Origin: an uncultured Anaerolineales bacterium
Lineage (GTDB): Bacteria > Chloroflexota > Anaerolineae > B4-G1 > SLSP01
Direction: 5' to 3'
Length of the DNA stretch: 64,000 nt
Assembly (NCBI GenBank): GCA_964501335.1
Contig: CAZCTC010000036.1
Location: 8,224-72,223 of the forward strand
In this document: positions 300 through 58,050 of the stretch, in pieces
How the letters are laid out: each line of letters starts with the position of its first letter
Numbering within the stretch: the first letter of the stretch is position 1
Notes under the pieces: generated by a model
Databases searched by the model: none
Told to the model about the DNA's origin: nothing
What the model saw: only the letters and a program-made list of their open reading frames with translations
Position numbers and translations under genes: made by a program

Positions 300-1130
300 T
301 CTACATAACCTGTCCTGAAAATAGGCGCGCCGTGCCCCCCATGGGCGACCATAAAGGTCGCCCCTACCCGAACACCCCCAATGGAGGGGCGGGGTTACCC
401 CGCCCGGCCCATCCCCAAATCAACCTTCCCCAACGGAAAAGCATCCCCCACCGGGTAATTACCTTCAGAATCAATACATGGATACCTGCATCGGGCGAGA
501 AAACCTCGCCCCTACACAAACGATCTCCCGTAGGGGTACCCCTTGTGGGTACCCAATCTGACAAATCGTCCATTTTCCTCTTTCGGGGTGCCGCCCCCCG
601 CATGGCCTTCTGTCCTGAAAATAGGGCTCTATAGCCTTTTAGCATCCCGCAAATGATCTTTTTCCGGCCAGAAACGACGCGCGGTGCGAAGCAGGGGAAG
701 AGAGTTTTTTTGTTTATGTTTTTGCGCGCATCAGAATGCGCGCAAAAACATAGCCTTTTCCAGAGCCGCCCTGGCGACGCTCTCTTCCCCCTCCTTCCCC
801 CACAGAGCAGTCGTCATGCGGAAACCGGATCCCCGTTCCCGCGTGTTCGTTGGGGGAAGGAGGGGGTCAGGGGGAGGATGAGGGCCAACAGGCAGCGCCC
901 GACAATCTATTTTCCTCTTTCGGGGAGCCACCCCCGGCATGGCCTTCTGTCCTGAAAATAGCCGGAATTTTTAACGCAGAGCCGCAAAGAAGCAGAGACG
1001 CAGAGCCAGAAAAAATAAATCTTCCTCTGCGTCTCTCTGCGATCTCCCCGTCTCTGCGTTGAAATCTCTTTTTCATCCTCCAGAATGCCGCCCCCTATAA
1101 AATTTTTGTAGTAAAATCTGATTCTCTGGC
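300..1130. repeat. Noncoding mosaic of dispersed short repeats
   Basis: Three copies of tttcctctttcggggtgccgcc..ggcatggccttctgtcctgaaaatag (~315, ~575-625, ~905-960). GCCCCTAC..GTAGGGGC hairpins at ~357-394 and ~505-545. Modular element with hairpin 716..751. agagacgcagag..ctctgcgtctct hairpin at ~995-1045. The six-frame ORFs here are repeat artefacts. Confidence 0.8.
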
Positions 1131-1170: not shown

Positions 1171-1956
1171 ATGTTATCGAACGCCGTCGTTCTGCGCGAC
1201 ATTCCCAAAGAAGAAGCCATCCTCGACCTCTTTCGCTATCCCATTCAAGGCGGATTCCGCGGCTTTTACGCCATCGTCCCCATCATCGGCTGGCACCATG
1301 CCAGCGTCAAAGGAGGCGACCATCACAAGGGCTTCTGGTTCTACCTCCATCCCCAGGAAGCCGTCGTCCGCCGTTATGAATACGGCCAGGGCTTTGTTGA
1401 AGACGAACCCACATCCGTCACACAATACAGCCAGCTTGCCTTAAGCGGAGCCATGGGCCCGGCCCTGGTTGAATATCCGCCTCAACTCTACGCCCACTGG
1501 TTCGGCCTGACCCGCTTTATCCCCGAAGGTCCCCAACTCCCCCAACTTCACGAAGAAGACGGCCCCGGCAGCTCCCGCTTTGCCCGGGCCTGGCAGGGAA
1601 CCCATCAAGGCAACCATGAAGCCTTCCTGGCCGAATTCCAGACCGCCTTCCTGCGCTCACTCGTCAGCCAGAAGAGCGCAGAATTCGACGAAGCTGCCGA
1701 ACTACGCTGGAGGCACCTGCTCCTCTCAACCTACAACGCCGGCGAATACCAGATCCAGGAAGCCGCCCCGCTTTTTGAAAACCTCGTCGACGTCCTTCTG
1801 CGGCAATTCGCCCTGCTGCCCGACCCCTGGTTTGAAAAAGGCAGCTTTGTCGTCGCCCAGATCGGCTATATGATCGAAGACATGGAAGACAGCGGCGTCC
1901 CGGAACTCGCCCCCAAAGCCGCCGAACTGAAACGCTACCTGGATCAACGACGATAG
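1171..1956 (+). CDS. Hypothetical protein (262 aa)
   Basis: ATG at 1171 with GGAGG at 1159-1163. Uninterrupted ORF with no recognisable family. The ORF-track start at 1135 lacks an RBS. Confidence 0.55.
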   Translation: MLSNAVVLRDIPKEEAILDLFRYPIQGGFRGFYAIVPIIGWHHASVKGGDHHKGFWFYLHPQEAVVRRYEYGQGFVEDEPTSVTQYSQLALSGAMGPALVEYPPQLYAHWFGLTRFIPEGPQLPQLHEEDGPGSSRFARAWQGTHQGNHEAFLAEFQTAFLRSLVSQKSAEFDEAAELRWRHLLLSTYNAGEYQIQEAAPLFENLVDVLLRQFALLPDPWFEKGSFVVAQIGYMIEDMEDSGVPELAPKAAELKRYLDQRR

Positions 1957-1961
1957 CAACC

Positions 1962-2500
1962 CATTTTTCACCCGCCCTCTCTCTCTGAAAAAAACATAAT
2001 TTGGCGGGCTCTGAAAAAATCCATATTTTCGGCGGCTTTCTGAAGCCGCCGAAAATATAAATAAAAAAACTCTCCCCCCCTCCCGCGCGTCGCTTCAAAC
2101 CGAACAAAAGCCCTTTGCAGGACGCAAAAACACCCCCGTAAAACCATTTTTCGCCCGCCCTCTCTCTCTGAAAAAACATAATTTGGCGGGCTTTCTGAAG
2201 CCCGCCAAATTATAAAAAAATAACTCTCCCCCCCTCCCGCGCGTCGCTTCAAACCGAACAAATGCCCTCTGCGGGACGCAAAAACACCCCCCGTAAAACC
2301 ATTTTTCGCCCGCCCTCTCTCTCTGAAAAAACATAATTTGGCGGGCTTTCTGAAGCCCGCCAAATTATAAAAAAATAACTCTCCCCCCCTCCCGCGCGTC
2401 GCTTCAAACCGAACAAATGCCCTCTGCGGGACGCAAAAACACCCCCCGTAAAAACCATTTTTCGCCCGCCTTCTGAGGCGGGCGAAAAATGGTATAATCA
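1962..2500. repeat. Tandem array of a 156-bp unit (~3.3 copies; the first copy is 182 bp with an extra hairpin insertion), ending in a terminal hairpin
   Basis: Unit starts (catttttcRcccgccctctctctctgaaaaaacataatttggcgggc..) are at 1962, 2144, 2300 and 2456. Each unit carries a 14-bp-stem hairpin (ataatttggcgggc-tttctgaa-gcccgccaaattat) and the cgcgtcg..catttgcgggacgc module in reverse orientation. Same family as the dispersed copies. Confidence 0.9.
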
Positions 2501-5564: not shown

Positions 5565-5584
5565 AGCAGTACCGCAAAAGGCCT

Positions 5585-5710
5585 TTATTTGTTAAAAAGC
5601 GACGCGCTGGATGGGAAGAGAGAATTATTTTTTATTCATTTTTCGGCGGCTTCAGAAAGCCGCCGAAAAATGGCCTGTTCTTTCCCGTGTTTTCCGGGCT
5701 AACCGCACAG
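5585..5710 (+). repeat. Modular intergenic repeat element (forward orientation) with a 14-bp hairpin
   Basis: gacgcgctggatgggaagagag, then a T-rich stretch, then catttttcggcggc-ttcagaaa-gccgccgaaaaatg (5634..5669), then gcctgttctttcc, then ccgcacag. Confidence 0.85.
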
Positions 5711-5732: not shown

Positions 5733-6869
5733 ATGTCCCCGCTCCAACCTTCACCCGCATTCCCCTTACCCGTTTCACGTTTTACGTTTTACGTTTCACG
5801 TTTTACGTTTTATCTCTGCCTCGTCCTCCTTCTCGCTGCCTGTTATGTCGGGCCGCAACCCGACGCCCGTCAGCCCATCATCCCGGAAGAAGTCCGCAGC
5901 GAATGTCCCGTCTGGGGCCGCGGCGGCTCCGTCCACGCCCGCCAGATCGCCTACGCCCCCGACGGCAAAACGCTCGCCGTCGCCGGCCAGGGCATCTCCC
6001 TGCGCGATACCGCTACCGGTCGCGGCCTCTGGTGTATCGATGAACTCGATCCCCAATTTATTATCGGCGGGCTGAAATTCAGCCCCGACGGACAGACCCT
6101 CGGACTCTACGTCGCCATCTCCAACACCTTACAGTTGCGCCGCGTCGACGACGGCACCCTCATCCGGGAAATCACAGACCCTACCGATTACCTCTATGAC
6201 TTTGATTTCTCGCCCGACGGCCGCTCTCTGGCAACAACAGCCGCAGACGGCACCGTCCGCTGGTATTCTCTCGCCGGCGATGCCAAACTCCTCTGGACCG
6301 CCGCCACTTCCGAATACGCCCCCGTCGCAACAGCCGTTTCCCCCGACGGCCGGACCCTGGCAGTCCGCTACTTCGACGGCCAACTGGATTTCCACAACAC
6401 GGCCGACGGAAGCTTGCAGCGAACGGTTAAACTGGATCTGATGGGCAGTACCGGCAAATTGATCTACACGCGAGATGGTTCAATCCTCATCGCCTGGACT
6501 GAAAACAAAATCCAGGCCCTCCGCCTCAGCGACAACCAGAATCTGCTCGCCGTGGAACTTACCCATGACTCGAAAAGCAGTACCATAATCAACAACGTCA
6601 TGCTCTCTCCCAATGGAAATCAGCTCGCCGTTCTGGCCATGGGTTGGCTCTGGCTGGAACCCGCCGAGAGTTCCAGCCTCTCCGACACCAAAAGCAGCGT
6701 CAACGATCAATACGCAATTAGCCTCTGGAACACCTCCGACTGGAGCCAGGAAAAAACCCTCAACGGCGGCAAATGGATCTACACCTTCGCCTACGCCCCC
6801 GACGGCCAACAAATTGTCACCAGCTGGAACAACGAGATCGCCTTCTGGAATCTGAAGTCTGAAAAGTAA
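5733..6869 (+). CDS. WD40/beta-propeller repeat lipoprotein
   Basis: Lipobox LLLAAC. Repeated ..SPDG(K/R)TLA.. blades. The N-terminal coding region holds a 21-bp tandem duplication encoding VSRFTFY twice. Confidence 0.7.
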   Translation: MSPLQPSPAFPLPVSRFTFYVSRFTFYLCLVLLLAACYVGPQPDARQPIIPEEVRSECPVWGRGGSVHARQIAYAPDGKTLAVAGQGISLRDTATGRGLWCIDELDPQFIIGGLKFSPDGQTLGLYVAISNTLQLRRVDDGTLIREITDPTDYLYDFDFSPDGRSLATTAADGTVRWYSLAGDAKLLWTAATSEYAPVATAVSPDGRTLAVRYFDGQLDFHNTADGSLQRTVKLDLMGSTGKLIYTRDGSILIAWTENKIQALRLSDNQNLLAVELTHDSKSSTIINNVMLSPNGNQLAVLAMGWLWLEPAESSSLSDTKSSVNDQYAISLWNTSDWSQEKTLNGGKWIYTFAYAPDGQQIVTSWNNEIAFWNLKSEK

Positions 6870-6871
6870 TT

Positions 6872-7099
6872 AACCCAAGTTGCTACCTCGATAAATCCAG
6901 CCCATGATTCAAGATCCGCTGCATGCCGTCTAAAAGTAGACAGCAGCAAGTAGACAGTAGACAGCAAAAATCTTCGCCTTACCGGCTCAAATGGACTGGA
7001 AATCCGCTGTCTACTGTCTACCGTCTACTTTCTACTAAACCTTTGCATACAAAAAAGCTTAAATAGAAAGCACGTCTTTTAAAGGTAGCAACTTGGGTT
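6872..7099. mobile_element. MITE-like non-autonomous element with perfect 17-bp terminal inverted repeats
   Basis: aacccaagttgctacct at 6872..6888 is the exact reverse complement of 7083..7099. The interior holds inverted TGTCTAC-array modules (6935..6965 and 7006..7037) and no ORF. It sits 2 bp after the WD40 stop. Confidence 0.6.
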
Positions 7100-7106
7100 G
7101 CTTAAC

Positions 7107-7227
7107 CTTTTTAACGTCCTGCATAGGTCGTTTTTCCCGTAAGAAACGTCGCGCGTGATGGAAGAAGAGAATTTTTTGTTCATGTTTTCGCGTGCCGCAG
7201 ACGGCACGCGAAAACATGGACCTTTTC
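7107..7227 (+). repeat. Modular intergenic repeat element (forward) with a covarying hairpin
   Basis: ttaacgtcctgcatagg..aaacgtcgcgcgtgatggaagaagag..catgttttcgcgtgccg-caga-cggcacgcgaaaacatg (7190..7227), then gaccttttcttg. Confidence 0.85.
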
Positions 7228-7230
7228 TTG

Positions 7231-7285
7231 CTGTCTACTGTCTACTTGCTACTGTCTACTTCTTCTTGCTACTGTCTACTTCTTC
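7231..7285 (+). repeat. TGTCTAC heptad direct-repeat array
   Basis: ctgtctactgtctacttgctactgtctacttcttcttgctactgtctacttc. Related arrays at 12411..12442, 39359..39390, 6935..6965 (reverse) and 7006..7037. Confidence 0.85.
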
Positions 7286-7349
7286 TTGCACTTTTCCCCA
7301 ATTGGACGTAAGATCGGATCAAACTAAAATTCTAACCATAGGAGATCCC

Positions 7350-12327: not shown

Positions 12328-12410
12328 CATCATTTAAGTTTTACTGCATGCAAAAGATTAGTAAACAGGATTCAGCAGATGACAGATTTTCCACCCATTT
12401 GAGATCTACC

Positions 12411-12442
12411 TGTCTACTGTCTACTTGCTACTGTCTACTTCT
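12411..12442 (+). repeat. TGTCTAC heptad direct-repeat array, 18 bp upstream of phoU
   Basis: cctgtctactgtctacttgctactgtctacttc. Confidence 0.85.
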
Positions 12443-13122: not shown

Positions 13123-13400
13123 GAAAAATTTCCTCGCGGGCGGCCACATCGGGCCGCCCCTACAAACACGCCACCCATGTAGGGGCGCCCCGGCGTGGGC
13201 GCCCTCCTCTCCCCCCATCCAGCGCATCGCATCAAGCCGAACAAAACCTCCTGCGGGACGCCAATTAAAGTACCGGTTGCGGGACGCTAAAAAAGCTAAC
13301 CGCACAGCTGGCAAACCCTCGTTCCACCATTGCAAAAGCAGCATATCTAAGTAAAATTGAGTTGATTTACCAGCCGTAGTTCCGATAAAAAGCAAATCAA

Positions 13401-36522: not shown

Positions 36523-37590
36523 TTAAACCCTCGCCAGAAACTTCCGCACCTTTCTGAACGATTCTTCCCAGGTAGGATGCTTCGCATAACTTTTACAGGC
36601 CCCCAGGCTCAACTCCACTAAAAATTCCCGCTCCAACGCCAACGACAAAATATAACCGCCCAACCGATCGATATCCCCAGGCATGATCAAATACCCATTG
36701 TCCCCCGGTTTGATCAACTCATCCGCCCCTCCGGCCGTCGTCCCGATAGCCGGCAATCCCCACCCCATACCCTCCAGGTAGGCCAACCCAAACCCCTCAT
36801 AATAAGAAGGCATCACCAACAACTGGCTCCGGCGCAGATGGTAAGTCAGCGCCCGCCCGTCCAACCGCCCCCGAAAGAAGATCATATCTTCCACCTCCTC
36901 CCGCTCTGCCAGCTTTTTCAAAAACGCCACATAGCCCGGATCCAGATCCATCGATCCGACCAGATTAAGCTCCATCCAGGGAGGAATCGACCCCATAGCC
37001 TCGATCAGATCTGCCACCCCCTTCCGGGGGATCAGATTGCCCAGAAAAATCATCCGAAGCGGACAATTCACCTGGGCCCGGGCAGCGATCTCATCCGGCA
37101 TGACCTTCGCCCCATCGGCATCTCGCCCCGGATAGGCAATCGGACCCTGGATTCGCCGGCCGGCGGCCCGACTCACCGCCCGCCGCGTGGCCTTGCTGTT
37201 ATAAATACACCCGGTCATCTGTCGCAAATAGAGCCGTTCCACAAAACGATAGAACAACCGCAGCCCCCATGGATGCGGCTCGCAGGAACGCAAATGATGG
37301 ACCAAAGCAATCAACGGCACGCCGGTAGCCTGCAACTCTCGATTGACCGCCAGCAATGAGGGGTGACTCAACTCATCCTGAATCCACACCTCGATATCAG
37401 AACGCTGAAAAATCTCCCGCGTAGAAGCCGTAAAATTATCTTTCAGATGACGGGGGTAATCGCGTCCCGGCAGGCTGAAAATCTCCACCTCATCGCCTTG
37501 CGCCCGCAGATAAGAGACCAGCTGCCGATCGTAAAGATACCCCCCCGATACACTCTCCAGACCGTCATAGATAACCAACCCGATCTTCAC
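36523..37590 (-). CDS. GT4-family glycosyltransferase
   Basis: GTG start after AGGAG. EX7E-type motif EGFGLAYLEGMGWGLPAI. Its start overlaps the upstream gene's stop by 26 nt. Confidence 0.8.
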   Translation of the reverse strand: MKIGLVIYDGLESVSGGYLYDRQLVSYLRAQGDEVEIFSLPGRDYPRHLKDNFTASTREIFQRSDIEVWIQDELSHPSLLAVNRELQATGVPLIALVHHLRSCEPHPWGLRLFYRFVERLYLRQMTGCIYNSKATRRAVSRAAGRRIQGPIAYPGRDADGAKVMPDEIAARAQVNCPLRMIFLGNLIPRKGVADLIEAMGSIPPWMELNLVGSMDLDPGYVAFLKKLAEREEVEDMIFFRGRLDGRALTYHLRRSQLLVMPSYYEGFGLAYLEGMGWGLPAIGTTAGGADELIKPGDNGYLIMPGDIDRLGGYILSLALEREFLVELSLGACKSYAKHPTWEESFRKVRKFLARV

Positions 37591-39124: not shown

Positions 39125-39300
39125 TGGCCCCGGCCTTGCCGCGTCCCGCAAATGGCCCTTTCCCCGTAAAAAACGACGCGCTGGATCGGAAGAGAGAGTT
39201 TTTTTGTTTATGTTTTCGGCGGCTTCGGAAAGCCGCCGAAAACATAGGCCTTTTCCTGAATCGCGTCGCTGCTTAACAACAAAACTAGGGAGAGGGGCAG
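39125..39300 (+). repeat. Complete modular intergenic repeat element (forward)
   Basis: gcgtcccgcaaatg, then aaacgacgcgctggatcggaagagagag, then T-rich, then atgttttcggcggc-ttcggaaa-gccgccgaaaacat (39210..39245), then aggccttttcc, then a tail. A tgtcctgaaaatag module precedes it and a TGTCTAC array follows at 39359..39390. Confidence 0.85.
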
Positions 39301-39400
39301 GGGTGAGGGCTAAACGCCAAAACATGTCCCTTTTCCAGAGCCGCCCCGGCGACACGGGCTGTCTACTGTCTACTTGCCGCTGTCTACTTCCGCTGAATTT

Positions 39401-41015: not shown

Positions 41016-41149
41016 CTATTTTATAGGCTTTTTTAAAAATGAAGGTTTATATTTTCCCCAAAACCCTTTACAAATAACCTAACTGATTTATAATCATTAG
41101 GCACGCCTTATAATTTTATATTTAAACCGAAACAGGGCAGGAGGCCAGC

Positions 41150-41572
41150 GTGGTCAGCGATCATTTTGAAGAATATCTCGGGGCTATCTTTCGGTTGCGC
41201 CATGATACCGACACAGCCCTCCCACTTTCACAGTTGCAACTCTATTTTGGCTACTCACCGATCTCCATCCATGAAATGGTCCAAAAGCTCACCACTCAAG
41301 GGTTGGTGACCTATCAGCCCTACCGCGGCGTCACCCTGACCCCCGACGGGGAACGCATCGGCATGGATCTGGTCCGGCGCCACCGCCTTTGGGAACGGTT
41401 CCTGACCGACCTGTTGGACTTCCCCGCCGACAGCGTTCACGAAATCGCCGGCCAGCTGGAACATGCCGCCCCCCAGGAAGTGACGGAACGGCTCGCCCGG
41501 CTCCTGGGCAACCCGGAAAACTGCCCCCACGGTGATCCCATCCCCCCCCGCCGGGAGGAACTATCACAATAA
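41150..41572 (+). CDS. DtxR/MntR-family metal-dependent transcriptional repressor
   Basis: GTG after AGGAGG. N-terminal helix-turn-helix, dimerisation and metal-site pattern (..HEIAGQLEH.., C-terminal NCPHGDPIP). Confidence 0.75.
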   Translation: MVSDHFEEYLGAIFRLRHDTDTALPLSQLQLYFGYSPISIHEMVQKLTTQGLVTYQPYRGVTLTPDGERIGMDLVRRHRLWERFLTDLLDFPADSVHEIAGQLEHAAPQEVTERLARLLGNPENCPHGDPIPPRREELSQ

Positions 41573-41586
41573 AAAATTCTCAACCT

Positions 41587-41990
41587 GTGCGGGTAACCTG
41601 GAAAACGAGTGAAAAAAATTCTCTTCCAGCCCGCGCAGCGCTTCTTACCAGGAAGACACCTTCAGCGGGACGCAAAAATACCGCCCGCATGAATAAAACA
41701 GTTGGTGCGAAAAATGGGAGAAAAAAAGCCCGCGAAAACATAAATAAAAATTTCTCTCTATCCAGCGCGGCGCTTCTTACCGGGCAAAAGCCATTTGCGG
41801 GACGCTAAAATGCCGCCCACAGGGATAAAACAATGGATGCTAAAAAACGAGAAACAAAGAGCCCGCGAAAACATAAATAAAAATTTCTCTCTCTATCCAG
41901 CGCGGCGCTTCTTACCGGGCAAAAGCCATTTGCGGGACGCTAAAACGATCCCCATTCACATAGAAATAAAGCGGTTTAACCGGAGGTAAT
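41587..41990. repeat. Tandem array (~2.5 copies of 132-139 bp) of the modular element in reverse orientation, filling the feoAB upstream region
   Basis: Units begin tccagcgcggcgcttcttaccgggcaaaagccatttgcgggacgctaaaa.. at about 41624, 41763 and 41895. Confidence 0.85.
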
Positions 41991-41995
41991 ACAAC

Positions 41996-44209
41996 ATGAT
42001 CCCCTTGATCGGACTCGAACCAGGGAAAATCGGCATGGTACGGCGACTCGAAGGCGAACACGGCCTCGTAGCCCGTCTGGCCGCACTGGGCTTCACCCCC
42101 GGCGCAGCCGTCACCATCACCCGCAACGACGGCCACGGCCCCATCATCGTCTCCCTGCGCGGCGCCCAGGTCGCCCTGGGCCGCGGTGAAGCTTCCCGCG
42201 TCATCGTCACCCCCGCCCCGCTGCAGGATTCCATCCCCCAGATCGGAGAACGGACCCGGGTGATCGCCCTGGCCGGTCAGCCCAATGTCGGCAAATCGAC
42301 CATCTTCAACCTCCTCACCGGCCTCAACCAGCATGTCGGCAACTGGGCCGGCAAAACCGTCGAACAAAAAACCGGCATCTTCGCCTATGGTGAAGCCCGC
42401 TACTCCCTGGTCGACCTGCCCGGCGCCTACAGCCTGACTGCCAATTCAGAAGAAGAACGTATTGCCCGCGACTTCATCATCCGCGAGCGCCCCGATGTCG
42501 TCGTGGCCGTCGTCGATGCCGCCACCCTGGAACGCAGCCTCTACCTGCTCTCCGAACTGTTGCTCCTGCCGGCTCCCGTCGTCCTGGCCCTCAATATGAT
42601 CGATGTCGCCGAGCGCGAAGGCATCCAGATCGAGCCCCAGGTACTCTCGGCCGCCCTGGGCATCCCGGTCGTCCCCATGGCCGCCGCTCGCGGCTCCGGC
42701 GTCCGCGAAATGGTCGAGACCGTCAACCGCCTCATCAACGACGAATTGACCTACGAGCCGCGCCGCCCTACCATCCTGCCGGCCCATCAAATGGTCCTGG
42801 CCGAACTGATGACGCTGATCGTTCCCTACGTCCCCGAACCCTACCCCGCAGATTGGGCCACGCTCAAACTGCTGGAGGGCGACGAAGAAATCGCCGCCAT
42901 GTTGCAGGCCGACCTTCCCCCCGAAATCTGGGAAAAGGTCCACGCCATCCTCTATCAACATGAAGATGCCATTCTGGATATCGCCGGCGCCCGCTATGAA
43001 TGGGTTGCTCGCATGGTCCGCGCCGCCGTCGTCCAGCCTCGCGTCGGGCGGCTGGGCATCACCGCCCGGCTGGACCGCGTCCTCACCCATCCCGTCTGGG
43101 GCCTGATCTTCCTGGCCGGCATCCTCGGCACACTCTTCACCCTCACCTATAGCCTGGGCACCCCTATCCAGGATTTCCTGGAAGCGCAAATCTATGCCCT
43201 CTCCGGCTGGATTCATGCCACGCTGACCACACCCACCTGGTTCACCGCCCTCCTGGCCGACGGTTTGATCGGCGGCGCCGGACTGGTCGTCACCTTTTTG
43301 CCTATCCTGGTAATCTTCTTCACCGCCCTGGCCCTGCTCGAAGACACCGGCTATATGGCCCGCATCGCCTATCTGATGGACCGAATCATGCACATGATGG
43401 GATTACACGGCAAAAGCTTCCTGCCGTTGTTGCTGGGCTTCGGCTGCAATGTACCGGGAATCATGGGCACACGGATCATCGAATCCCGCCGGGCCCGCTT
43501 CTTCACCCTGATGCTGACCCCGTTGATCCCCTGCACCGCGCGCATGGCCGTGGTCGCCCTGCTGGTCCCGGTCTTCTTCGGCGCCAACGCCGGCTGGATC
43601 GCCTGGGCCCTCGTCATGATGAACCTGCTCCTGCTGGTCGGGCTGGGCATCTTCTTCCACCATTTCTTCTTCAAGGGCGAAACCGTCGCCTTTGTGATGG
43701 AGCTGCCGCTCTACCATCAGCCTAACCTGCGAACCATCGGACTCTACGTCTGGCGCAACACCCTGGCATTCCTGAGCAAAGCCGGCACCGTCATCCTGGG
43801 AGCCTCCATCGCACTCTGGGCGCTCTCCTATTTCCCCAACGGAAACGTCGATACCAGCTACCTCGCCGCCTTCGGACACACCCTGGAACCGCTGGGTAAT
43901 CTGATCGGTCTGCCCTGGCCGCTGTTGGTTTCATTGATCACCAGCTTCATCGCCAAAGAAAACACCATCGCCACGCTGGGAGTCCTCTACGGCGACTATG
44001 CCAACGTCCTGCCGACCATCCTCACTCCGCCGGCAGCCCTGGCCTTCCTGGTGATTCAAATGCTCTTCATTCCCTGTATCGGCACCGTCGCCGCCATCAA
44101 ACAGGAAACCAAATCCTGGCGCTGGGCCTTGCTGAGTGTGACGCTCTTCCTGGGGCTCTCCCTGGGAATCGGAATGCTTATCTATCAAATCGGAAGTCTT
44201 TTTTTATAA
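41996..44209 (+). CDS. feoB: Ferrous iron transporter, FeoA-FeoB fusion
   Basis: RBS GGAGG. N-terminal FeoA SH3-like domain. G-domain GQPNVGKST, DLPG. Polytopic C-terminus. 737 aa. Confidence 0.9.
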   Translation: MIPLIGLEPGKIGMVRRLEGEHGLVARLAALGFTPGAAVTITRNDGHGPIIVSLRGAQVALGRGEASRVIVTPAPLQDSIPQIGERTRVIALAGQPNVGKSTIFNLLTGLNQHVGNWAGKTVEQKTGIFAYGEARYSLVDLPGAYSLTANSEEERIARDFIIRERPDVVVAVVDAATLERSLYLLSELLLLPAPVVLALNMIDVAEREGIQIEPQVLSAALGIPVVPMAAARGSGVREMVETVNRLINDELTYEPRRPTILPAHQMVLAELMTLIVPYVPEPYPADWATLKLLEGDEEIAAMLQADLPPEIWEKVHAILYQHEDAILDIAGARYEWVARMVRAAVVQPRVGRLGITARLDRVLTHPVWGLIFLAGILGTLFTLTYSLGTPIQDFLEAQIYALSGWIHATLTTPTWFTALLADGLIGGAGLVVTFLPILVIFFTALALLEDTGYMARIAYLMDRIMHMMGLHGKSFLPLLLGFGCNVPGIMGTRIIESRRARFFTLMLTPLIPCTARMAVVALLVPVFFGANAGWIAWALVMMNLLLLVGLGIFFHHFFFKGETVAFVMELPLYHQPNLRTIGLYVWRNTLAFLSKAGTVILGASIALWALSYFPNGNVDTSYLAAFGHTLEPLGNLIGLPWPLLVSLITSFIAKENTIATLGVLYGDYANVLPTILTPPAALAFLVIQMLFIPCIGTVAAIKQETKSWRWALLSVTLFLGLSLGIGMLIYQIGSLFL

Positions 44210-44224
44210 AAATTCTCTTGCGAT

Positions 44225-44380
44225 TAGTATTTTAACGTCCCGCAAAAAGCTTTAGTTCGGCTCGAAGCGACACGCTGAATGGGTAGAAAGAGATTTTTTA
44301 ATCATTTTTTCGGCGGCTTCAGAAAACCGCCGAAAAAATGGGCTTTTCTTTCAAAAAACACCCTGGGTGACGCAACAACA
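44225..44380 (+). repeat. Modular intergenic repeat element (forward) between feoB and the feoC-like gene
   Basis: ttttaacgtcccgcaaaaag..gcgacacgctgaatgggtagaaagag, then cattttttcggcggc-ttcagaaaa-ccgccgaaaaaatg (44303..44340), then ggcttttctttc. Confidence 0.85.
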
Positions 44381-44396
44381 AAAATAGAGGCTATCA

Positions 44397-44648
44397 ATGT
44401 TAATACAATTACTGGCTCAATTAGATCGTGGGGGTATCCAGACACCCGACTCGCTCGCCGCAACGCTGGGCGTCTCCGAGGGATTGATCCGCCAGATGAC
44501 GGATCAACTGGTCCGGCAGGGATACTTAAAAAAAATGGATAACTGTGAGTCGGGCTGTGGACACTGCGAACTCAAATCCGGCTGCGACACCCACAGCAGC
44601 GGAATGTGGATGCTGACCGAACGCGGCCGCCGCGCCGTCAAACCTTAA
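44397..44648 (+). CDS. FeoC-like small winged-helix protein with a C-terminal Cys cluster
   Basis: AGAGG, 6-nt spacer, ATG. 83 aa. Winged-helix-like N-terminus, then CESGCGHCELKSGCD. Confidence 0.5.
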   Translation: MLIQLLAQLDRGGIQTPDSLAATLGVSEGLIRQMTDQLVRQGYLKKMDNCESGCGHCELKSGCDTHSSGMWMLTERGRRAVKP

Positions 44649-44791: not shown

Positions 44792-45637
44792 ATGAACCGC
44801 TTTATGCAAACCCTGTTATTCGCCACAACTACCTTTCTGCTGTTAAACGCCTGCACCGCCTCACCACCAGCAACAAATTCCACCCCCGAACTCTCTTCAT
44901 CTTCATTTCCCACCCACACGCCTTACCCCAACGACACTCCCACTCCCCGACCTTCTTCATCCGAATGTGATCCAACCCCGGTCGGTATCCTCGCGCTAGA
45001 AAACTATCACATGGCCGATGCCGGCAATTTCGTCCTGACCGCCGGGGAACCGGTAACACTTAGCTGGCAATCCGCGCCGGCAAATGCCGACCGCTACGAA
45101 TTCATTTTTATCGATATGAACACCAATCTCACCACCACCATCGCTATCGATGACAACCCCGCTGATGGAGCATCCATCCTCTGGAACCCACCGGAAGATT
45201 CAAGCCTCCACGTGAATGCCGTCGCTTACGATTCACAAGGATGCGGCACTCGCGCTTACTATACTCCTGAGGGAATCTATACCCGCAAAGGCCCCAAACC
45301 AAACGTATGCAGCCTGGAAATGATCACTTCCCTCCGTCAACCTTATTTTGACTTATATCCCCGGCCGACCTATGCCGCCACCCCGACCGCAGAACTGTAT
45401 GGATGGACCTATGTAGAAGTCTATCAGGTCACCACAGACCATTGGTATCAAATCGACGGCAGCACAGAAGCCTCCATCAAAGAATCAAGGACGGATCATC
45501 CTACCGATCCGATTTGGCTCCATCTCGATCCTGAAAAAGAAAATCATGCGATCTTTAAGGGCCCCTGCGAAAATCTCCCAGTCGTCCCAGCCGCCCCCAC
45601 CGAACCCACCCTGACACCAACGCCCAACAATGGATAA
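44792..45637 (+). CDS. Hypothetical secreted lipoprotein
   Basis: RBS AAGGAGG. Signal peptide and lipobox LLNAC. Pro/Thr-rich ends. Confidence 0.6.
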   Translation: MNRFMQTLLFATTTFLLLNACTASPPATNSTPELSSSSFPTHTPYPNDTPTPRPSSSECDPTPVGILALENYHMADAGNFVLTAGEPVTLSWQSAPANADRYEFIFIDMNTNLTTTIAIDDNPADGASILWNPPEDSSLHVNAVAYDSQGCGTRAYYTPEGIYTRKGPKPNVCSLEMITSLRQPYFDLYPRPTYAATPTAELYGWTYVEVYQVTTDHWYQIDGSTEASIKESRTDHPTDPIWLHLDPEKENHAIFKGPCENLPVVPAAPTEPTLTPTPNNG

Positions 45638-45639
45638 AA

Positions 45640-45900
45640 ATCCCGGCTATTTTCAAGACAGAAGGCCATGCCGGGGGCGGCACCCCGAAAGATGAAAATG
45701 GATTTTTGGGTTAGAGGGTGCCCATGCAGGAGCGCCCTACATTGGTGGTGTTCGCATAGGGGCGGCCCGATGTGGCCGCCCTTGGGGAGATTTTTGGACA
45801 ATGGCCCTATTTTCAAGACAGCTTTAACGCTGTGAGGCGGGGAGATCGCAAAGAGACGCAGAGAAAAATAAATTTTCTCTGCGTCTCTGCTGCTCCGAGT
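45640..45900. repeat. Cluster of dispersed repeat modules in reverse orientation
   Basis: The reverse complement of tttcggggtgccgcc..tgtcttgaaaatag lies at ~45640-45700. A GCCCTACA..ATAGGGGC hairpin at ~45740-45775 matches 13157-13197. The gagacgcagag..ctctgcgtctct hairpin at ~45855-45890 matches 995-1045. Confidence 0.8.
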
Positions 45901-45920: not shown

Positions 45921-48900
45921 TTAACCTTTCCGCATGACAGCCGGCAGATAGACTCGATAGGTGCGGAAGGTCGCCGTGACCGCCTTCGGCCCATCCATCG
46001 TCACCGTCACGACCGGCACCGCCGCCGTGACCGCCCCGCTCCAGCCGCCGAAGGAAACGGTCCTGGTCGTCGTCGCGCTCAACGTCACCACCGTCCCCGC
46101 CGTAAAGGTCGCCTGACAGGTGCCGCTGGAACAGTTCACGCCGGCCGGCAGACTGGTCACCAGCCCCGTCCCCTCGCCCGTCAGCGTCACCGTCAGCGTA
46201 TAGAGGTTCATCGCAAACGCAGCCGTGATCGTATGGTTCGCCATAACGTTGGTAAAGGTGTAGGCGTTCACCGCCCCCACCGTACTGCCGTCCACCCGCA
46301 CATCCACGATGTGATAACCGGTGCTGGGGCTGATCGTAAAGACCGCACTGCCGCCGTGATTCACCGTCTGCGGCGTGCTGGGACTGATCGAACCGTTCGC
46401 CCCGGCCGTCGGCGTGATCGTATAAATGTTGATCGCAAACGCAGCCGTGATCGTATGGTTCGCCGTGACGTTGGTAAAGGTGTAGGCGCTCACCGCCCCC
46501 ACCGTACTGCCGTCCACCCGCACATCCACGATGTGATAACCGGTGCTGGGGCTGATCGTAAAGACCGCACTGCCGCCGTGATTCACCGTCTGCGGCGTGC
46601 TGGGACTGATCGAGCCGTTCGTCCCGGCCGTCGGCATGATGGTATAAGTGTTGATCGCAAACGCAGCCGTAATGGTGTGGTTCGCCGTGACGTTAGTGAA
46701 AGTATAGGCGCTCACCGCCCCGACCGTGCTGCCGTCCACCCGCACATCCACAATGTGATAACCGGTACTCGGACTGATCGTAAAGACCGCACTGCCGCCG
46801 TGATTCACCGTCTGCGGCGTGCTGGGACTGATCGAACCGTTCGCCCCGGCCGTCGGCGTGATCGTATAAATGTTGATCGCAAACGCAGCCGTGATCGTAT
46901 GGTTCGCCGTGACGTTGGTAAAGGTGTAGGCGCTCACCGCCCCCACCGTGCTGCCGTCCACCCACACATCCACAATGTGATAACCCGTGCTCGGGCTGAT
47001 CGTGAAGGAAATCGTGCTGCCGTAATTCACCACCGTCGGCACGGCCGGACTGAGCGAACCGTTCGCCCCGGCCGTCGGCGTGATGGTGTAGGTGTTGATC
47101 GCAAACGAGGCCGTGACGGCTTTAGCTGTCGTCATTGTGAACACCTGGGGATTGCCGGTACCGCTCAAATCGCCGCTCCACCCGCTAAAGGTCGAACTGA
47201 TCAGCGGTGTCGCAGTCAGGGTGACCACAGTACCGGGCAAGAAACCATAAGTACAGGTGATTCCACAATTGATCCCGGCCGGATTGCTGGTCACATTGCC
47301 GATTCCCATACCGCTGAAATTAAGATTCAACAGCAGATAGGGTGATTCGTACGCTCCCGCATCGACGCTGTCACCGACAATCCGGACATTGCCGTCCAGA
47401 TCAGTCATCATGGTAACGCTGAGACTGTTTCCGGCATCGATCGCCGGCGAAACCATCTGCAAACGATAATCGCCGGTCGTGGTAGGAGCCGCCGTGGCAA
47501 TAATCGGCGTGGCGAACTTCGGATCGCTATACCGCATCCCGGTACCGCAGGTCGTTCCGGAAGGACAGCTTCCCTGAAGCACCGAAGAACTCAGCGCAGC
47601 CGTACCATTGTTGTTGTAAATTTCCGCCCCCGTCGTGGCGCTGTCGCCCCAAAAGATCGTGTTAACCGCAGTGGCCACACTGCCGGACCCATAATTATGA
47701 ATCGCGCCGCCCTGGCCGGCCCGGTTGCCGGCAAAGGTGACATTGAGCAAGCGCGGCGTCACGCTGCCGGAATAGCCGTTGTTGTAAATTCCACCGCCGC
47801 TGGAGCTGCCGTAGTTACCGCTGAAGAGTACGTTGATCAACACCGGGCTGCTGCTCCCCTGATAGCCATAGTTGTCCAGCCCGCCGCCATAAGCCGCCTG
47901 ATTGCCGCGGAAGATCACATGGGTCAATATCGGGCTGCTGACCCCGTTTCCGCCGTCGTTATACATCCCACCGCCGCTGCTGGCGCTCTGATTGCCGCTG
48001 AAGATCACATGGGTCAACTGCGGACTGCTGGTGCCGGAGCTGCCGTTGTTGTAAAGGCCGCCGCCGTAGGAAGCAGCCCGGTTTCCACTGATCGTCAGAT
48101 TGGCAAGGGTCGGACTGCACGCTTTGCCGCTGCCGTTGCCGGCGCAGTAGATCCCCCCGCCCGAATCGTTCGGAGCCGTGCCGGCCGCATTGCCTCCGGT
48201 AACGGTAAAGCCGTCGATCACCGTGGTCCCGGTAATCAGGCCGTTCGTCACCCCGTCCAGATAAAACACATGATAGGCATTGTTGGTCGCCAGCCCGTTT
48301 TTATCGATATCCCCGCTGAGGATGGTCGGATGCGCCGTCCAGTTGCGCTCGGAACGCTGCGTCTCGGTGGCGGCAAAACCGCCGTAAAGTTGCACATTGT
48401 TCCGATTGATCCGGAAAGTCTCCGTCAAGGCATTGTTCACATGCCCCGCGCCCTCATCGGGATAATAAGTTCCCTCAGCCACCCAGATCTCATAAGTCGA
48501 AGAGACATGCGCATGGGTCCAGGCCAGCGCCTCCTGCACATTGGTATAAGCGGTGCTCCAGGAAAGGCCGTCGGGAGTGCCGGTCGCATCCCTGTCGACA
48601 TAGAAAACATGGGCTTCGTAGGCTCCCCGATCCACCAGCGGAGCCGTGCCGTTGCCGGTATCGGCAGCCGGCATATCGACTTTGCGGGCCCAGCCATCCC
48701 GATCTGTCCCCGCCGGCACAACGTTATTGTCACCGGAATCGATCGCAGGCGACGTTAAACGCAAACGATAATTGCCGCTTGTTGTAGGAGCCGCCGTGGC
48801 GGTAATCGGCATAATAAATAAGGGATCGGTATAAAGCATCCCAGATCCACAACTCGCCAGGTCCGGACAGCCTCCCTCAATCGTACTGTAACTGATCACC

Positions 48901-50513
48901 GGGTAAGTGGCATTAAAATTGTAAGTGTAAATCTGCGCCCCCGCCCCCCCGGCCGTATTCCCCCACAAAATACTGTTTTGCAATGCCGGCTGGCTACCCC
49001 AATAACCATTGCCGTAAAGCACCATAGCGCCGCCATTTACCGCGGCCCGATTTCCACTGAACGTCAGATTGGTCAACACCGGATAGGCAGCAGTCCAGGC
49101 AGCATAGGCAAGAATTCCCAATCCCCCACCCTCGTTGGCCTGATTTCCACTGAAAACCACGTTGTTCAATACCGGATTACCATCTCCGGTACCCACCAGA
49201 AGGGCTCCCCCCCCAGTCCCTCCGGCCATATTGTTGAGAAAGGTTACATTATCCATCCGGAGATAACTGATAGATCGAACCGCATTATTGATCAGCCCAC
49301 CGCCCCCCTCAGTAGATCGGTTGCCGGTAAAAACAACATCCTTCAAATAGGGGCTCAAGACAGCTCCGTCCGTTATCCCGTAATCAGTAGCGAGGCCACC
49401 TCCATTAGTAGCCTGATTGCCGCTGAAAACTACATGAGAAATCGTAGGGCCACAGACCGGACCAGCAGAATAGCAATAAAGGCCCCCACCCCGATCCTGC
49501 CAATATCCCCCATCTGCCTGTCCCCCTGTCAGCGTAAAGCCGTCGATGACCGTAGTCGGACCAATACTGGATGAATACGCCCTTAGAGAAAAAATGTTAT
49601 AGGCATTGCCGCCCACAATATCGTTCCAGGTTTCATTAATGAAATTGCCGTCTGTGTTAATGTCATTTCTCTCGACATCCCCACTAAGAATCGTCGGATG
49701 GGCCACCCAATCACGTTGGTCCAACCGGGTCTCGTTCCCGGCAAACCCGCCGTAAAGCAAAAAACCATCCACATCCTCAATCCTGAAAGTGGCATTCCGG
49801 CCATCCCCTTCTGGATAGTAGACCCCCTCCGCCACCCAGATCTCCTCATCGGTCCCGGTATGATAAGCTATAGCCGTCGTCAGAGAAGTATAGGCATTCT
49901 GCCAGGAAAGCCCGGTTCCGGTGCCGGTCGCATCTTTATCGACATAATAGATCGGCCGGATCGCATACTCGAAGTAAGCGCCGTCCGATTCGGTCCAGGA
50001 AGTCTCATACTGACTGGCGTTGCGATCGGCGACCGTGCCGGAAACGCGGCCAGAACTGGTCGCCAATGTGCCGTTGCTGATATAGAAAATGTATTTGACC
50101 GTGGTACCGTAAGGCTGCGGCGGCACGCTCGCCACCCAGATCCGGTTGGGATCGCTGTATCTGGAGAAAGTAGCCGTCACCGCCGTCCCGTTGGTCTTGG
50201 TAGGATTGCTGCCGTCCGTTGTATAGACCAGATAGACTGTTTTGCCGGTCGTATCGAAAGCAAAATTGACATAGAGATCGGCCGTATCGTCGAAATGGAT
50301 CATCGAGCTGGAAAAATCAAGGCGCCCGGAGGCCTGCCGGTAATTAGGGGCTACCGTATAGGGGTGAAGATGCGTGCCGTCGGTATAACCGATCGACTCG
50401 CCGGGGAAGTGTCCCGTCCCGCTCCAGGCTCCCACGACGGGAACCAGGACCAATAAGAAGGCCAGCATGGCCATCCAGACACTGAACTTAAGGCTGCCGC
50501 GTATCAGCTTCAT
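45921..50513 (-). CDS. Giant secreted beta-helix (pectin-lyase-fold/Pmp-like) adhesin-like protein with C-terminal tandem domain repeats
   Basis: ATG at 50513 after AAAGGA. Signal peptide. Repeated GG(G/A)(L/I)(Y/H)N..G/...SGN(Q/R)A parallel beta-helix units. C-terminus has four near-identical 74-aa domains plus two diverged flanking copies (InlB B-repeat-like). Confidence 0.8.
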   Translation of the reverse strand: MKLIRGSLKFSVWMAMLAFLLVLVPVVGAWSGTGHFPGESIGYTDGTHLHPYTVAPNYRQASGRLDFSSSMIHFDDTADLYVNFAFDTTGKTVYLVYTTDGSNPTKTNGTAVTATFSRYSDPNRIWVASVPPQPYGTTVKYIFYISNGTLATSSGRVSGTVADRNASQYETSWTESDGAYFEYAIRPIYYVDKDATGTGTGLSWQNAYTSLTTAIAYHTGTDEEIWVAEGVYYPEGDGRNATFRIEDVDGFLLYGGFAGNETRLDQRDWVAHPTILSGDVERNDINTDGNFINETWNDIVGGNAYNIFSLRAYSSSIGPTTVIDGFTLTGGQADGGYWQDRGGGLYCYSAGPVCGPTISHVVFSGNQATNGGGLATDYGITDGAVLSPYLKDVVFTGNRSTEGGGGLINNAVRSISYLRMDNVTFLNNMAGGTGGGALLVGTGDGNPVLNNVVFSGNQANEGGGLGILAYAAWTAAYPVLTNLTFSGNRAAVNGGAMVLYGNGYWGSQPALQNSILWGNTAGGAGAQIYTYNFNATYPVISYSTIEGGCPDLASCGSGMLYTDPLFIMPITATAAPTTSGNYRLRLTSPAIDSGDNNVVPAGTDRDGWARKVDMPAADTGNGTAPLVDRGAYEAHVFYVDRDATGTPDGLSWSTAYTNVQEALAWTHAHVSSTYEIWVAEGTYYPDEGAGHVNNALTETFRINRNNVQLYGGFAATETQRSERNWTAHPTILSGDIDKNGLATNNAYHVFYLDGVTNGLITGTTVIDGFTVTGGNAAGTAPNDSGGGIYCAGNGSGKACSPTLANLTISGNRAASYGGGLYNNGSSGTSSPQLTHVIFSGNQSASSGGGMYNDGGNGVSSPILTHVIFRGNQAAYGGGLDNYGYQGSSSPVLINVLFSGNYGSSSGGGIYNNGYSGSVTPRLLNVTFAGNRAGQGGAIHNYGSGSVATAVNTIFWGDSATTGAEIYNNNGTAALSSSVLQGSCPSGTTCGTGMRYSDPKFATPIIATAAPTTTGDYRLQMVSPAIDAGNSLSVTMMTDLDGNVRIVGDSVDAGAYESPYLLLNLNFSGMGIGNVTSNPAGINCGITCTYGFLPGTVVTLTATPLISSTFSGWSGDLSGTGNPQVFTMTTAKAVTASFAINTYTITPTAGANGSLSPAVPTVVNYGSTISFTISPSTGYHIVDVWVDGSTVGAVSAYTFTNVTANHTITAAFAINIYTITPTAGANGSISPSTPQTVNHGGSAVFTISPSTGYHIVDVRVDGSTVGAVSAYTFTNVTANHTITAAFAINTYTIMPTAGTNGSISPSTPQTVNHGGSAVFTISPSTGYHIVDVRVDGSTVGAVSAYTFTNVTANHTITAAFAINIYTITPTAGANGSISPSTPQTVNHGGSAVFTISPSTGYHIVDVRVDGSTVGAVNAYTFTNVMANHTITAAFAMNLYTLTVTLTGEGTGLVTSLPAGVNCSSGTCQATFTAGTVVTLSATTTRTVSFGGWSGAVTAAVPVVTVTMDGPKAVTATFRTYRVYLPAVMRKG
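46215..47105. repeat. Four near-identical 222-bp in-frame tandem repeats inside the adhesin gene
   Basis: ggtaaaggtgtaggcg recurs at 46251 and 46473, and further units follow with the same period. More than 95% nucleotide identity between units. Confidence 0.9.
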
Positions 50514-50599
50514 CACAGTTCCTTTCTATGAACGAATATGATGCATCTCCCAACACTCAAATTATAAGCACAAAGTGTGACAGAAGTGTTAATCATCAG

Positions 50600-50640
50600 T
50601 TCAGGTTTTCGCGCGCCTCAGAAGGCGCGCGAAAACCTGA
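50600..50640. repeat. Hairpin-family member (18-bp stem) followed by CCTTTTCTTC
   Basis: ttcaggttttcgcgcgcc-tcagaa-ggcgcgcgaaaacctgaa. Confidence 0.8.
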
Positions 50641-50667
50641 ACCTTTTCTTCTATCCTGACCACAAAA

Positions 50668-54824: not shown

Positions 54825-54990
54825 AGGCATTGTAGCGTCCCGCAAATGATCCCTTCCCGGCCCGATGCGACGCGCTGGATGGGAAGAAGAGTTTTTTGGT
54901 GGTGTTTTTGCGCGCATAAGAATGCGCGCAAAAACACAAGCTTTTTTCTCTGCGCCCTCGGCGCCTTTGCGGTGAAATCTGAGTGAATTA
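54825..54990 (+). repeat. Modular intergenic repeat element (forward) with a GCGCGC-core hairpin
   Basis: gtagcgtcccgcaaatgatccc..gcgacgcgctggatgggaagaagag, then gtgtttttgcgcgc-ataagaat-gcgcgcaaaaacac (54902..54937), then aagcttttttctc, then gcgccctcggcgcc. Confidence 0.85.
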
Positions 54991-57904: not shown

Positions 57905-58050
57905 GTATTTTCATATTTTCGCGCGCCGCCTGCGTAGCAGGTCAGATAAACAGAGAAAAGTTATTTTTATTCATTTTGTCGGCAGCATCAGAAAGCCGCC
58001 GACAAAATGAGCTTTTCTTTCTCTTGTTTTTCGGACTAGCCGTACAGGTG
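57905..58050 (+). repeat. Hairpin-family copies in the aspS/58124 divergent region
   Basis: catattttcgcgcgccgcctgcgtagcagg.. and cattttgtcggc-agcatcagaaa-gccgacaaaatg (57972..58009), then agcttttctttctc. Confidence 0.75.

Follow-up and report, generated by a model that had tools for sequence, protein, structure and literature searches.

Among the described small interspersed repeats of bacteria, SPRITE of Streptococcus pneumoniae is a terminator-like repeat that has an 18-bp duplex followed by a U-rich tract and is often located near gene 3' ends, and BOX of the same bacterium has the layout boxA-boxB(n)-boxC, in which the copy number of boxB varies, the more so the larger the array (PMC3049150). 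The MIRU of mycobacteria (Supply et al. 1997, as reviewed in PMC3184786) are direct tandem repeats in spacers between co-transcribed genes; REP sequences, 20–40 bp long, carry a GTAG or CGTC tag beside a 5–13-bp stem and occur mainly as inverted dimers, those of the GTAG type being linked to RAYT (PMC3733652); and the miniature inverted-repeat transposable elements (MITEs) include Correia, RUP, ERIC and bcr1 (PMC3184786). Here we analyze a stretch of 64,000 nt from an uncultured Anaerolineales bacterium of the phylum Chloroflexota (contig CAZCTC010000036.1, forward-strand positions 8,224 to 72,223; the whole stretch is hereafter called the window), in which two intergenic tandem arrays, array 1 next to a nitroreductase-phoB-phoR-like operon and array 2 between a DtxR-family repressor gene and feoAB, are likely to have arisen through local tandem duplication of a small interspersed repeat that is lineage-specific and very abundant in an uncultured Anaerolineae genome (hereafter, the element). 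The repeat family is undescribed, yet it is of a conventional bacterial kind.

By function and shape, SPRITE appears to be the nearest analogue of the element, and BOX and MIRU come nearest by behavior. Both SPRITE and the element are about 105–125 nt long and end in a duplex that exceeds the normal terminators of the host (18 bp in SPRITE, 14–20 bp in the element), followed by a U-rich tract, and neither has clear terminal inverted repeats or target-site duplications. SPRITE is often close to gene 3' ends; of the element, three of the four sense solo copies are, in a small sample in which eight loci are antisense. Homology is not expected given the different phylum and base composition, and the element differs from SPRITE in its GC-rich core, a conserved unstructured 5' module, many antisense copies, direct tandem arrays, and a far higher density. 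Like the element, BOX is a modular, mosaic interspersed repeat with one module amplified head to tail, but in BOX only the internal boxB repeats are multiplied, between fixed ends, boxA and boxC, which function as inverted repeats, whereas here the whole element is repeated together with its linker and terminal inverted repeats are not seen. Array 2 resembles MIRU in that dispersed units stand in direct tandem inside the intergenic region of an operon. MIRU units, however, are 40–100 bp long and contain small open reading frames (ORFs) that overlap the flanking stop and start codons, whereas the arrays analyzed here consist of 132–156-bp units with a hairpin module, no open frame runs across the sense strand of array 2, which has stops in all three frames, and the unit length of 155 bp is not divisible by 3.

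The element shares with REP/BIME the abundance of extragenic palindromic hairpins, compensatory stem variation and mosaic clusters (PMC3733652, PMC3184786), but its 14–20-bp stem is flanked by T- and A-runs with no adjoining GTAG or CGTC in an alignment of 15 copies, the array units are all head to tail, and no Y1 transposase gene was detected among the 30 window proteins scanned. It is like MITEs in its size class of 100–160 bp, intergenic location, high copy number and RNA-folding potential, and unlike them in that 18 copies lack the terminal inverted repeats that define MITEs; the flanks of these copies show no consistent target-site duplication, although optional extra modules blur the boundaries there. 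A CRISPR array consists of direct repeats of about 23–47 bp parted by unique spacers of similar length. The arrays in the window are made of contiguous units of 132–183 bp without unique spacers, so that their earlier classification as not CRISPR-like is correct, and the only match to an Rfam CRISPR direct-repeat family (CRISPR-DR) is a hairpin match below threshold (21 bits against a gathering score of 45).

The two arrays and the dispersed element

Tandem repeats were located with Tandem Repeats Finder (TRF) over the 64-kb window. Array 1 was reported at 2009–2474 (period 155, 3.0 copies, 94% matches, score 808) and array 2 at 41614–41945 (period 132, 2.5 copies, 85% matches, score 455); both are non-coding. 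A preliminary description of this DNA, made from the sequence alone, had placed the arrays at 1962–2500 (3.3 x 156 bp) and 41587–41990 and had read them as reversed, head-to-tail copies of one modular element. TRF and a map of direct repeats uphold both arrays, with the coordinates of array 1 matching, and an nhmmer profile built from six plus-strand solo copies of the element (637–763, 5566–5685, 7108–7230, 39136–39259, 44230–44353 and 54829–54951; Table 1) recognizes each of the six array units, all in minus-strand orientation (E-values from 4e-29 to 5e-10).

Array 1 is delimited at 1961–2491 by a 16-bp direct repeat, CCATTTTTCRCCCGCC, four copies of which, starting at 1961, 2144, 2299 and 2455, set unit lengths of 183, 155 and 156 bp, after which a closing hairpin (hairpin X, 2455–2491) ends the array. 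Three times over, the 16-bp direct repeat is followed by a unit, and a fourth direct repeat closes the series; half-hairpins mark the junctions. The direct repeat is itself half of a hairpin, given that CCATTTTTCGCCCGCC, on the plus strand, is both the minus-strand 3' arm of hairpin X and the 16-bp sequence that bounds every unit. The nhmmer matches within the units run, on the minus strand, from 2129 to 2012, 2284 to 2177, and 2439 to 2332. The sole difference between the middle and the inner unit is one homopolymer A, and the outer unit contains a 26-bp partial duplication (1983–2035) that leaves an extra half hairpin. The terminator scan found stems of 17–20 pairs at 2019–2062, 2177–2214 and 2332–2369, and the units fold better than shuffled sequences (z of -3.1 and -5.4).

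The units of array 2 comprise only the 5' module and the 5' hairpin arm of the element (nhmmer model positions 3–91, 2–92 and 3–78), that is, they end inside the hairpin, and their folding is no better than that of shuffled sequences (z from -0.2 to -1.3). The 14-bp-stem hairpin that had been ascribed to every unit is found, with the longer stems given above, in array 1 but not in array 2, and the short modules thought to be kept in each unit are kept only approximately: array 1 has tgcgggacgc and lacks catttgcgggacgc, and array 2 has gcgcggcgc in place of cgcgtcg. The feoAB-proximal pair of array 2 units is 98% identical, the dtxR-proximal unit being about 62% identical to them, and RNA of the sense strand of this array is predicted to be unstructured (z of +0.8).

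Dispersed copies of the element are mutually 58–78% identical, whereas the closest neighbors within arrays are 98–100% identical, and it is because of this difference that we interpret the arrays as local tandem duplications. Identity is about 100% between the inner units of array 1 and 93% in an adjacent pair of copies in L021, a contig of a metagenome-assembled genome (MAG) described below, and the outermost unit of array 2 alone is old (about 62%). The units of an array have their linker in common, and also a variant found in that array only: for array 1 this is GGGAGGGGGGGAGAG, and for array 2, GCGCCGCGC. The breakpoints of the arrays fall at hairpins and short direct repeats. Amplification through replication slippage or recombination, as suggested in the preliminary description, fits the identity of neighbors as well as the unit boundaries at direct repeats and half-hairpins. 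Other modules of the repeats also occur in tandem, namely, 38 bp x 2.8 (2431–2538) and 61 bp x 2.2 in L021, and 225 bp x 2.1 with 97% identity (5856–6331) in another contig, L077, and in both contigs the tandem module arrays begin right after a hairpin tail.

Under this scenario, a segment of one element together with its flank, bounded by short direct repeats or half-hairpins, would have been duplicated through slipped-strand misalignment or unequal recombination, with the hairpins probably promoting the process. Both arrays are antisense to the flanking genes, such that the terminator-like side would face away from sense transcripts; the arrays would therefore be tolerated and are probably close to neutral.

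The core of the element, as derived by aligning 15 full copies found on three contigs, spans about 125 nt and has two parts, a 5' module of about 75 nt and a long 3' hairpin. In the 5' module it is the primary sequence that is conserved, CCGCA and CGNCGCGC being near-invariant motifs, and there is no conserved structure across 22 copies (consensus fold of -0.19 kcal/mol, no covariation or compensatory pairs). A candidate GCGTC...GACGC helix in this module was rejected, given that its variants break the pairing rather than compensate for one another and that the 22-copy consensus fold is close to zero. In the hairpin, a TCAGAA-like loop is set between two GC cores, and these are flanked by a T-rich arm on the 5' side and an A-rich arm on the 3' side; the stem is 14–20 bp long. 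In the hairpin alignment, 92% of the cells are paired, 11 of the 20 pairs show changes on both sides, and the covariation score is 0.44, compared to 0.15 for shuffled alignments (none of 500 reached 0.44) and at most 0.13 for slid registers.

The hairpin is asymmetric with respect to strand. Among the non-Watson-Crick cells read on the forward strand of the element, there are 21 G.U and 3 A.C, and it is only on this strand that G.U pairs extend the hairpin, to be followed by GGGC and a T-run; likewise, the consensus scan labels the element hairpins terminator-like in the forward orientation only. The groEL terminator, which is of the type ordinary in this genome, has a 9-bp stem with A and T tracts, and because that stem is so short, the element hairpin represents a distinct, longer type. 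Judging from these sequence features, the 3' part of the element is a rho-independent terminator-like module, longer than the ordinary terminators of the host, and may be active in termination.

Many copies are trailed by optional downstream modules and by CTGTCTA heptamer minisatellites, which results in mosaic repeats, and ahead of every element there is a G-rich stretch with a T-run, similar to the tail in which another copy would end. In 18 copies, TTTTAGCGTCCCGC at the 5' end shows no complementarity to GGGCTTTTTTC at the 3' end, that is, there are no terminal inverted repeats, and no consistent target-site duplication was detected in the flanks of these copies, where the optional extra modules blur the boundaries. 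Pfam scans of 30 window proteins detected no transposase domain, and none was present in the Pfam lists of further genes at the fetched loci. Searching the whole window against Rfam yielded zero matches at the gathering score and only chance-level matches at E up to 10, and neither the plasmid and phage collections (blastn) nor the scan of a viral collection produced a match to the element.

We took a census of the element over 77.6 kb, made up of the window, the 8.8 kb on its left and the 4.8 kb on its right. This span contains 17 units at 13 loci, or about one unit per 4.6 kb, with six solo copies and six array units detected by nhmmer in the window and five further copies in the 8.8 kb on the left. 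The sense solo copies start 2 (phoR-like), 7 (pyrK-like), 21 (feoAB) and 239 nt (WD40) past stop codons. Eight loci are antisense, including both arrays and copies between the pyrF-, pyrD- and pyrK-like genes, and these lie between genes of the same strand. The forward strand of the element coincides with the plus strand at 10 of the 13 loci, and the plus strand is C-rich whatever the direction of the genes (GC skew of -0.20 in plus-strand genes and -0.13 in minus-strand genes). In the region to the left of the window, where all genes are on the minus strand, the plus-strand GC skew is -0.25. This strand asymmetry is very strong and extends to contig L077.

Scanning genome contigs with the pattern GCGTCCCGCAAA-N(18-34)-CGACGCGC produced matches at at least 65 loci; among the matches listed, nhmmer recognized genuine copies only in two MAG contigs, L021 and L009, the rest being chance matches in GC-rich genomes. 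These two contigs come from one co-assembly series; L021 contains six copies in 8 kb, and L009 is labeled Anaerolineaceae. The window shares no genes with either contig, only the repeats. L021 (CAZHVY010000024.1) is labeled 'uncultured Geobacter sp.', yet it contains six copies of this Anaerolineae repeat family along with the heptamer repeats, and is probably mis-binned. Relatives with 63–71% identical FeoAB have no copies of the element in the 8–22 kb examined. The scan of JGI metagenome contigs used a valid pattern, with three matches in the window itself; its sole match, L069, was rejected as a chance one, with no T-run or hairpin.

Array 2 and the dtxR-feoAB operon

Array 2 takes up 341 of the 423 bp between the DtxR-family gene and the gene for the FeoA-FeoB fusion protein. 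In related Anaerolineae, four loci have no more than 12–64 bp between the regulator gene and feoAB, which are therefore likely co-transcribed: L072 (DtxR of 215 aa, spacer of 64 bp), L074 (DtxR of 216 aa, 18 bp), Longilinea arvoryzae (L082; DtxR of 230 aa, 20 bp) and L080, where the regulator is a Fur protein of 147 aa and the spacer is 12 bp. In each case, a small Cys-rich gene follows feoAB, at a distance of 0–3 bp in the three DtxR loci and within 5 bp in L080. Thus, the junction is 423 bp long in the window, compared to 18–64 bp in the relatives with DtxR. Upstream of dtxR, L072 and L074 have TTGACA-17-TATAAT followed by a perfect palindrome, ATAAGGTATACCTTAT, and the layout in the window is the same: the sigma-70-like promoter site TTTACA-16-TATAAT is followed by TTAGGCACGCCTTA, the only match in the 64 kb to TAAGG-N4-CCTTA at no more than one mismatch.

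The preliminary description had located array 2 on the promoter/operator region of feoAB, had suggested that iron-dependent regulation could be altered there, and had proposed a search for DtxR- or Fur-box-like palindromes within the units. When run on array 2, this search gave no DtxR-box or Fur-box match within 3 mismatches; the scans of the array detected no promoter-like site and no plus-strand terminator-like site, and no palindromes apart from one that is AT-rich and of low complexity. The promoter and the operator-like palindrome are predicted upstream of dtxR instead, so the proposed location does not hold: array 2 is, by comparison with the related loci, best described as an antisense insert inside the predicted dtxR-feoAB operon, outside its promoter and operator, and transcription of feoAB most likely still starts at the promoter of dtxR. 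With array 2 inside the operon, any effect on iron regulation would be exerted via the long intercistronic spacer and a truncated DtxR, not via disruption of an operator.

The orthologous DtxR proteins at the three loci are 215–230 aa long and have a C-terminal FeoA/SH3-like domain that the DtxR of the window lacks. The latter is 66% identical to the L072 protein over residues 1–134, and the homology stops six codons before the end of the gene, which lies 32 bp before array 2. A remnant of the SH3-like domain was sought in and after array 2, and none was found. The coincidence of position suggests that a repeat event removed the 3' end of dtxR.

On the other side of feoAB, the solo copy at 44230–44353 separates this gene from a feoC-like gene (44397–44648), the product of which aligns with those of the small genes of the relatives at 43–47% identity, whereas in the relatives the two genes abut, 0–3 bp apart. 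This copy has a weak T-tract and was not flagged as terminator-like in the scan.

Alternative explanations for the arrays

Homologues of its FeoB and PhoR-like proteins place the window in Anaerolineae. The population from which it derives, the only one represented in the data, is also present in JGI metagenome 3300022666 and in run SRR6476076, at 99.9–100% identity. The JGI assembly spans array 2 with the same length and 99.99% identity. Neither the JGI nor the Logan contigs cross array 1: those on the left end at 2081 and 2044, and those on the right start at 2340 (L066) and 2424. The Logan contigs also break inside array 2. The borders of array 1 and its two unit types are independently supported by these other assemblies.

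Several observations weigh against local tandem duplication of a near-neutral repeat, or against parts of this account. The searches turned up no transposase, no terminal inverted repeats and no target-site duplications by which the family could have dispersed. The orientation counts are small and permit no firm conclusion: 4–5 loci are sense and 8 antisense, and the element is on the plus strand at 10 loci and on the minus strand at 3. A sense copy separates feoAB from the feoC-like gene that is its conserved partner, which sits uneasily with efficient termination of transcription at the hairpin. The link between array 2 and the truncation of DtxR is a coincidence of position only. Finally, a single assembly supplies the copy number of array 1, which could be wrong, the inner units being near-identical and the other assemblies breaking there.

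The breaks in the JGI and Logan contigs, together with the single-base difference between the inner units of array 1, are what one would expect if the arrays, or their copy numbers, were artefacts of assembling a repeat-rich MAG. Given that the JGI assembly crosses array 2 at identical length, that both borders and the two distinct unit types of array 1 are reproduced elsewhere, and that similar tandem pairs are present in other contigs, such an artefact is highly improbable. A very unlikely alternative is that the arrays arose through repeated independent insertions of a mobile element at a hot spot, for example, beside an existing copy or a terminator. The family is dispersed, so that some mechanism of mobilization must exist, the upstream flank of the element resembles the tail of another copy, and some adjacent units are quite divergent (70% identity for the pair at 2119 and 2318 in L021, about 62% for the outer unit of array 2). 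Separate insertions, however, would leave the linker uncopied, whereas the 98–100% identical inner units have the same linker, and the variants confined to each array are likewise at odds with this possibility. We consider it unlikely that a strand-specific mobile element of unknown kind, spreading via a single-stranded DNA or RNA intermediate, seeds terminators about once per 4–5 kb, with hairpin-triggered arrays serving as variable-number loci that tune operon coupling (for example, in dtxR-feoAB). The tolerance of G.U pairs on one strand, the predominance of 3'-only fragments among the truncated partial copies, and the location of the forward strand on the C-rich strand at 10 of 13 loci can be cited in its favor.

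Two further explanations assign the arrays a regulatory role. Were the arrays tandem small-RNA genes or a cis-regulatory RNA array, of the NsiR1 or PrrF1/2 type, with units transcribed to regulate the iron- and phosphate-related neighbors, this would account for the strong terminator-like hairpin that closes each array 1 unit on the minus strand, for the excess of G.U over A.C that marks one strand as relevant, and for the location of array 2 next to iron-uptake genes. We nevertheless regard this as quite unlikely because neither array contains a promoter-like site on either strand, so that the units have no promoters of their own, no structure is conserved in the 5' module, the units of array 2 are without the hairpin, Rfam gave no match even at E up to 10, and the same element is present at many unrelated loci in both orientations. 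From the fact that array 2 fills most of the dtxR-feoAB spacer, one might surmise that it represents an operator or promoter region that has been multiplied, with a change in the metal-dependent control of feoAB. The absence from this array of box matches, promoter-like sites and all but one low-complexity palindrome, the operator-like palindrome upstream of dtxR, as in the relatives, and the 18–64 bp between the two genes in those relatives make this exceedingly improbable.

If the arrays are local duplications of an interspersed repeat, about 1 kb of the 'intergenic arrays' of the window should be annotated as repeat debris rather than regulatory architecture, and the repeats explain why short-read assemblies of this Anaerolineae population are fragmented at exactly these points. 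The family adds an example from Chloroflexota to the short list of terminator-like (SPRITE) and modular, tandem-amplifying (BOX, MIRU) repeats; its density, one-strand signature and hairpin-linked duplications make it a usable system for studying the spread of repeats without an obvious transposase, and the arrays are candidate variable-number tandem repeat markers for strain tracking in the source community. The coincidence with the truncated DtxR hints, without proving it, that repeat activity can remodel a metal-regulator gene.

Neighboring genes and further repeats

Table 1. Copies of the element, array units and features of the dtxR-feoAB locus in the window
Feature	Position	Strand	Remarks
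Array 1	1958..2491	minus	3 head-to-tail units and closing hairpin; TRF, nhmmer, direct-repeat unit map
Array 1, outer unit	1961..2143	minus	183 bp; CGGCGGC-type hairpin; 82% identity to inner units
Array 1, middle unit	2144..2298	minus	155 bp; GGCGGGC-type hairpin
Array 1, inner unit	2299..2454	minus	156 bp; right part recurs at starts of JGI and Logan contigs
Closing hairpin X	2455..2491	minus	nhmmer hairpin match 2490-2454; direct-repeat copy at 2455
Extended -10-like motif TGGTATAAT	2490..2498	plus	just right of array 1, 51 nt upstream of nitroreductase start codon
Array 2	41605..41945	minus	three units: 41945-41860, 41811-41726, 41678-41605
Solo element	637..763	plus	nhmmer E 9e-34
Solo element, sense	5566..5685	plus	2 nt past phoR-like kinase stop; E 5e-31; terminator-like site 5636-5673
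Solo element, sense	7108..7230	plus	3' of WD40 gene, then CTGTCTA minisatellites
Solo element	39136..39259	plus	antisense to both flanking minus-strand genes (ribA, ADH)
Solo element, sense	44230..44353	plus	between feoAB and feoC-like gene; nhmmer E 2e-34
Solo element	54829..54951	plus	both flanking genes minus-strand, copy antisense to them
Partial copy, 5' module only	13206..13264	minus	model positions 5-64, E 6e-7
Partial copy, hairpin and tail	36470..36531	minus	sense, directly after glycosyltransferase stop (36523)
Hairpin-only copy	50599..50652	plus	adjoins ordinary groEL terminator
Partial copy, 3' hairpin half only	57953..58022	plus	model positions 59-126, E 2e-12
Promoter-like site and palindrome of dtxR	41067..41110	plus	TTTACA-16-TATAAT (41067-41094), then TTAGGCACGCCTTA (41097-41110)
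dtxR/mntR-family repressor gene	41150..41572	plus	140 aa; Pfam
feoAB fusion gene	41996..44209	plus	Pfam FeoA, FeoB_N, Gate, FeoB_C

Array 1 is located between an AAR2-like gene on the left (stop at 1956) and a nitroreductase gene on the right (start at 2549), and is antisense to both the AAR2-like gene and the nitroreductase-phoB-phoR-like operon. The TGGTATAAT motif is a putative promoter of this operon. We sought an empty orthologous site for array 1 and found none, the closest homologues of the PhoR-like kinase having at most 59% identity; the neighbors of the closest AAR2-like homologue (L079, 66%) differ from those at array 1.

The AAR2-like protein (1171–1956, plus strand) matches both domains of eukaryotic AAR2, with E of about 1e-6. 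In eukaryotes, AAR2 is a spliceosome assembly factor. There are 42 homologues of the bacterial protein, and the named ones come almost all from Chloroflexota MAGs, along with one cyanobacterial MAG.

CTGTCTA-based minisatellites accompany element tails at 6935–7036, 7231–7289, 12405–12440 and 39359–39395 in the window, at 6184–6318 in L021 and at 6046–6297 in L077, such that heptamer repeats of this type are common to different genomes. The window also contains further dispersed repeat families (569–624, 898–973, 1002–1054 and 13124–13184, against 45635–45886 in inverted orientation), and both the spacer at 45.6–45.9 kb and the 1.1 kb left of the AAR2-like gene are mosaics of these families. 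Repeats occur within predicted coding sequences as well. Six copies of CGTTTTA (5771–5812) are located at the 5' end of the predicted WD40 ORF (5733–6869), the true start codon of which may be further downstream, and a 1531-aa ORF (45921–50516, minus strand) encompasses coding repeats of 222 bp x 4.1 (46197–47116, 90%) and of 90 bp (47704–48060), where the JGI contigs break too.

The only reverse transcriptase (RT) is a retron-type protein of 294 aa (26646–27530, plus strand), encoded directly 3' of an SPFH/Band-7 gene (25903–26634, plus strand). It was considered as a mobilizer of the element and rejected, with no link to the repeats. The protein matches Pfam RVT_1, PADLOC RT_II-A (1.7e-63) and the NCBIfam retron St85 family (210 bits, against a cutoff of 235), and together with the SPFH/Band-7 gene it could form a retron defense locus.

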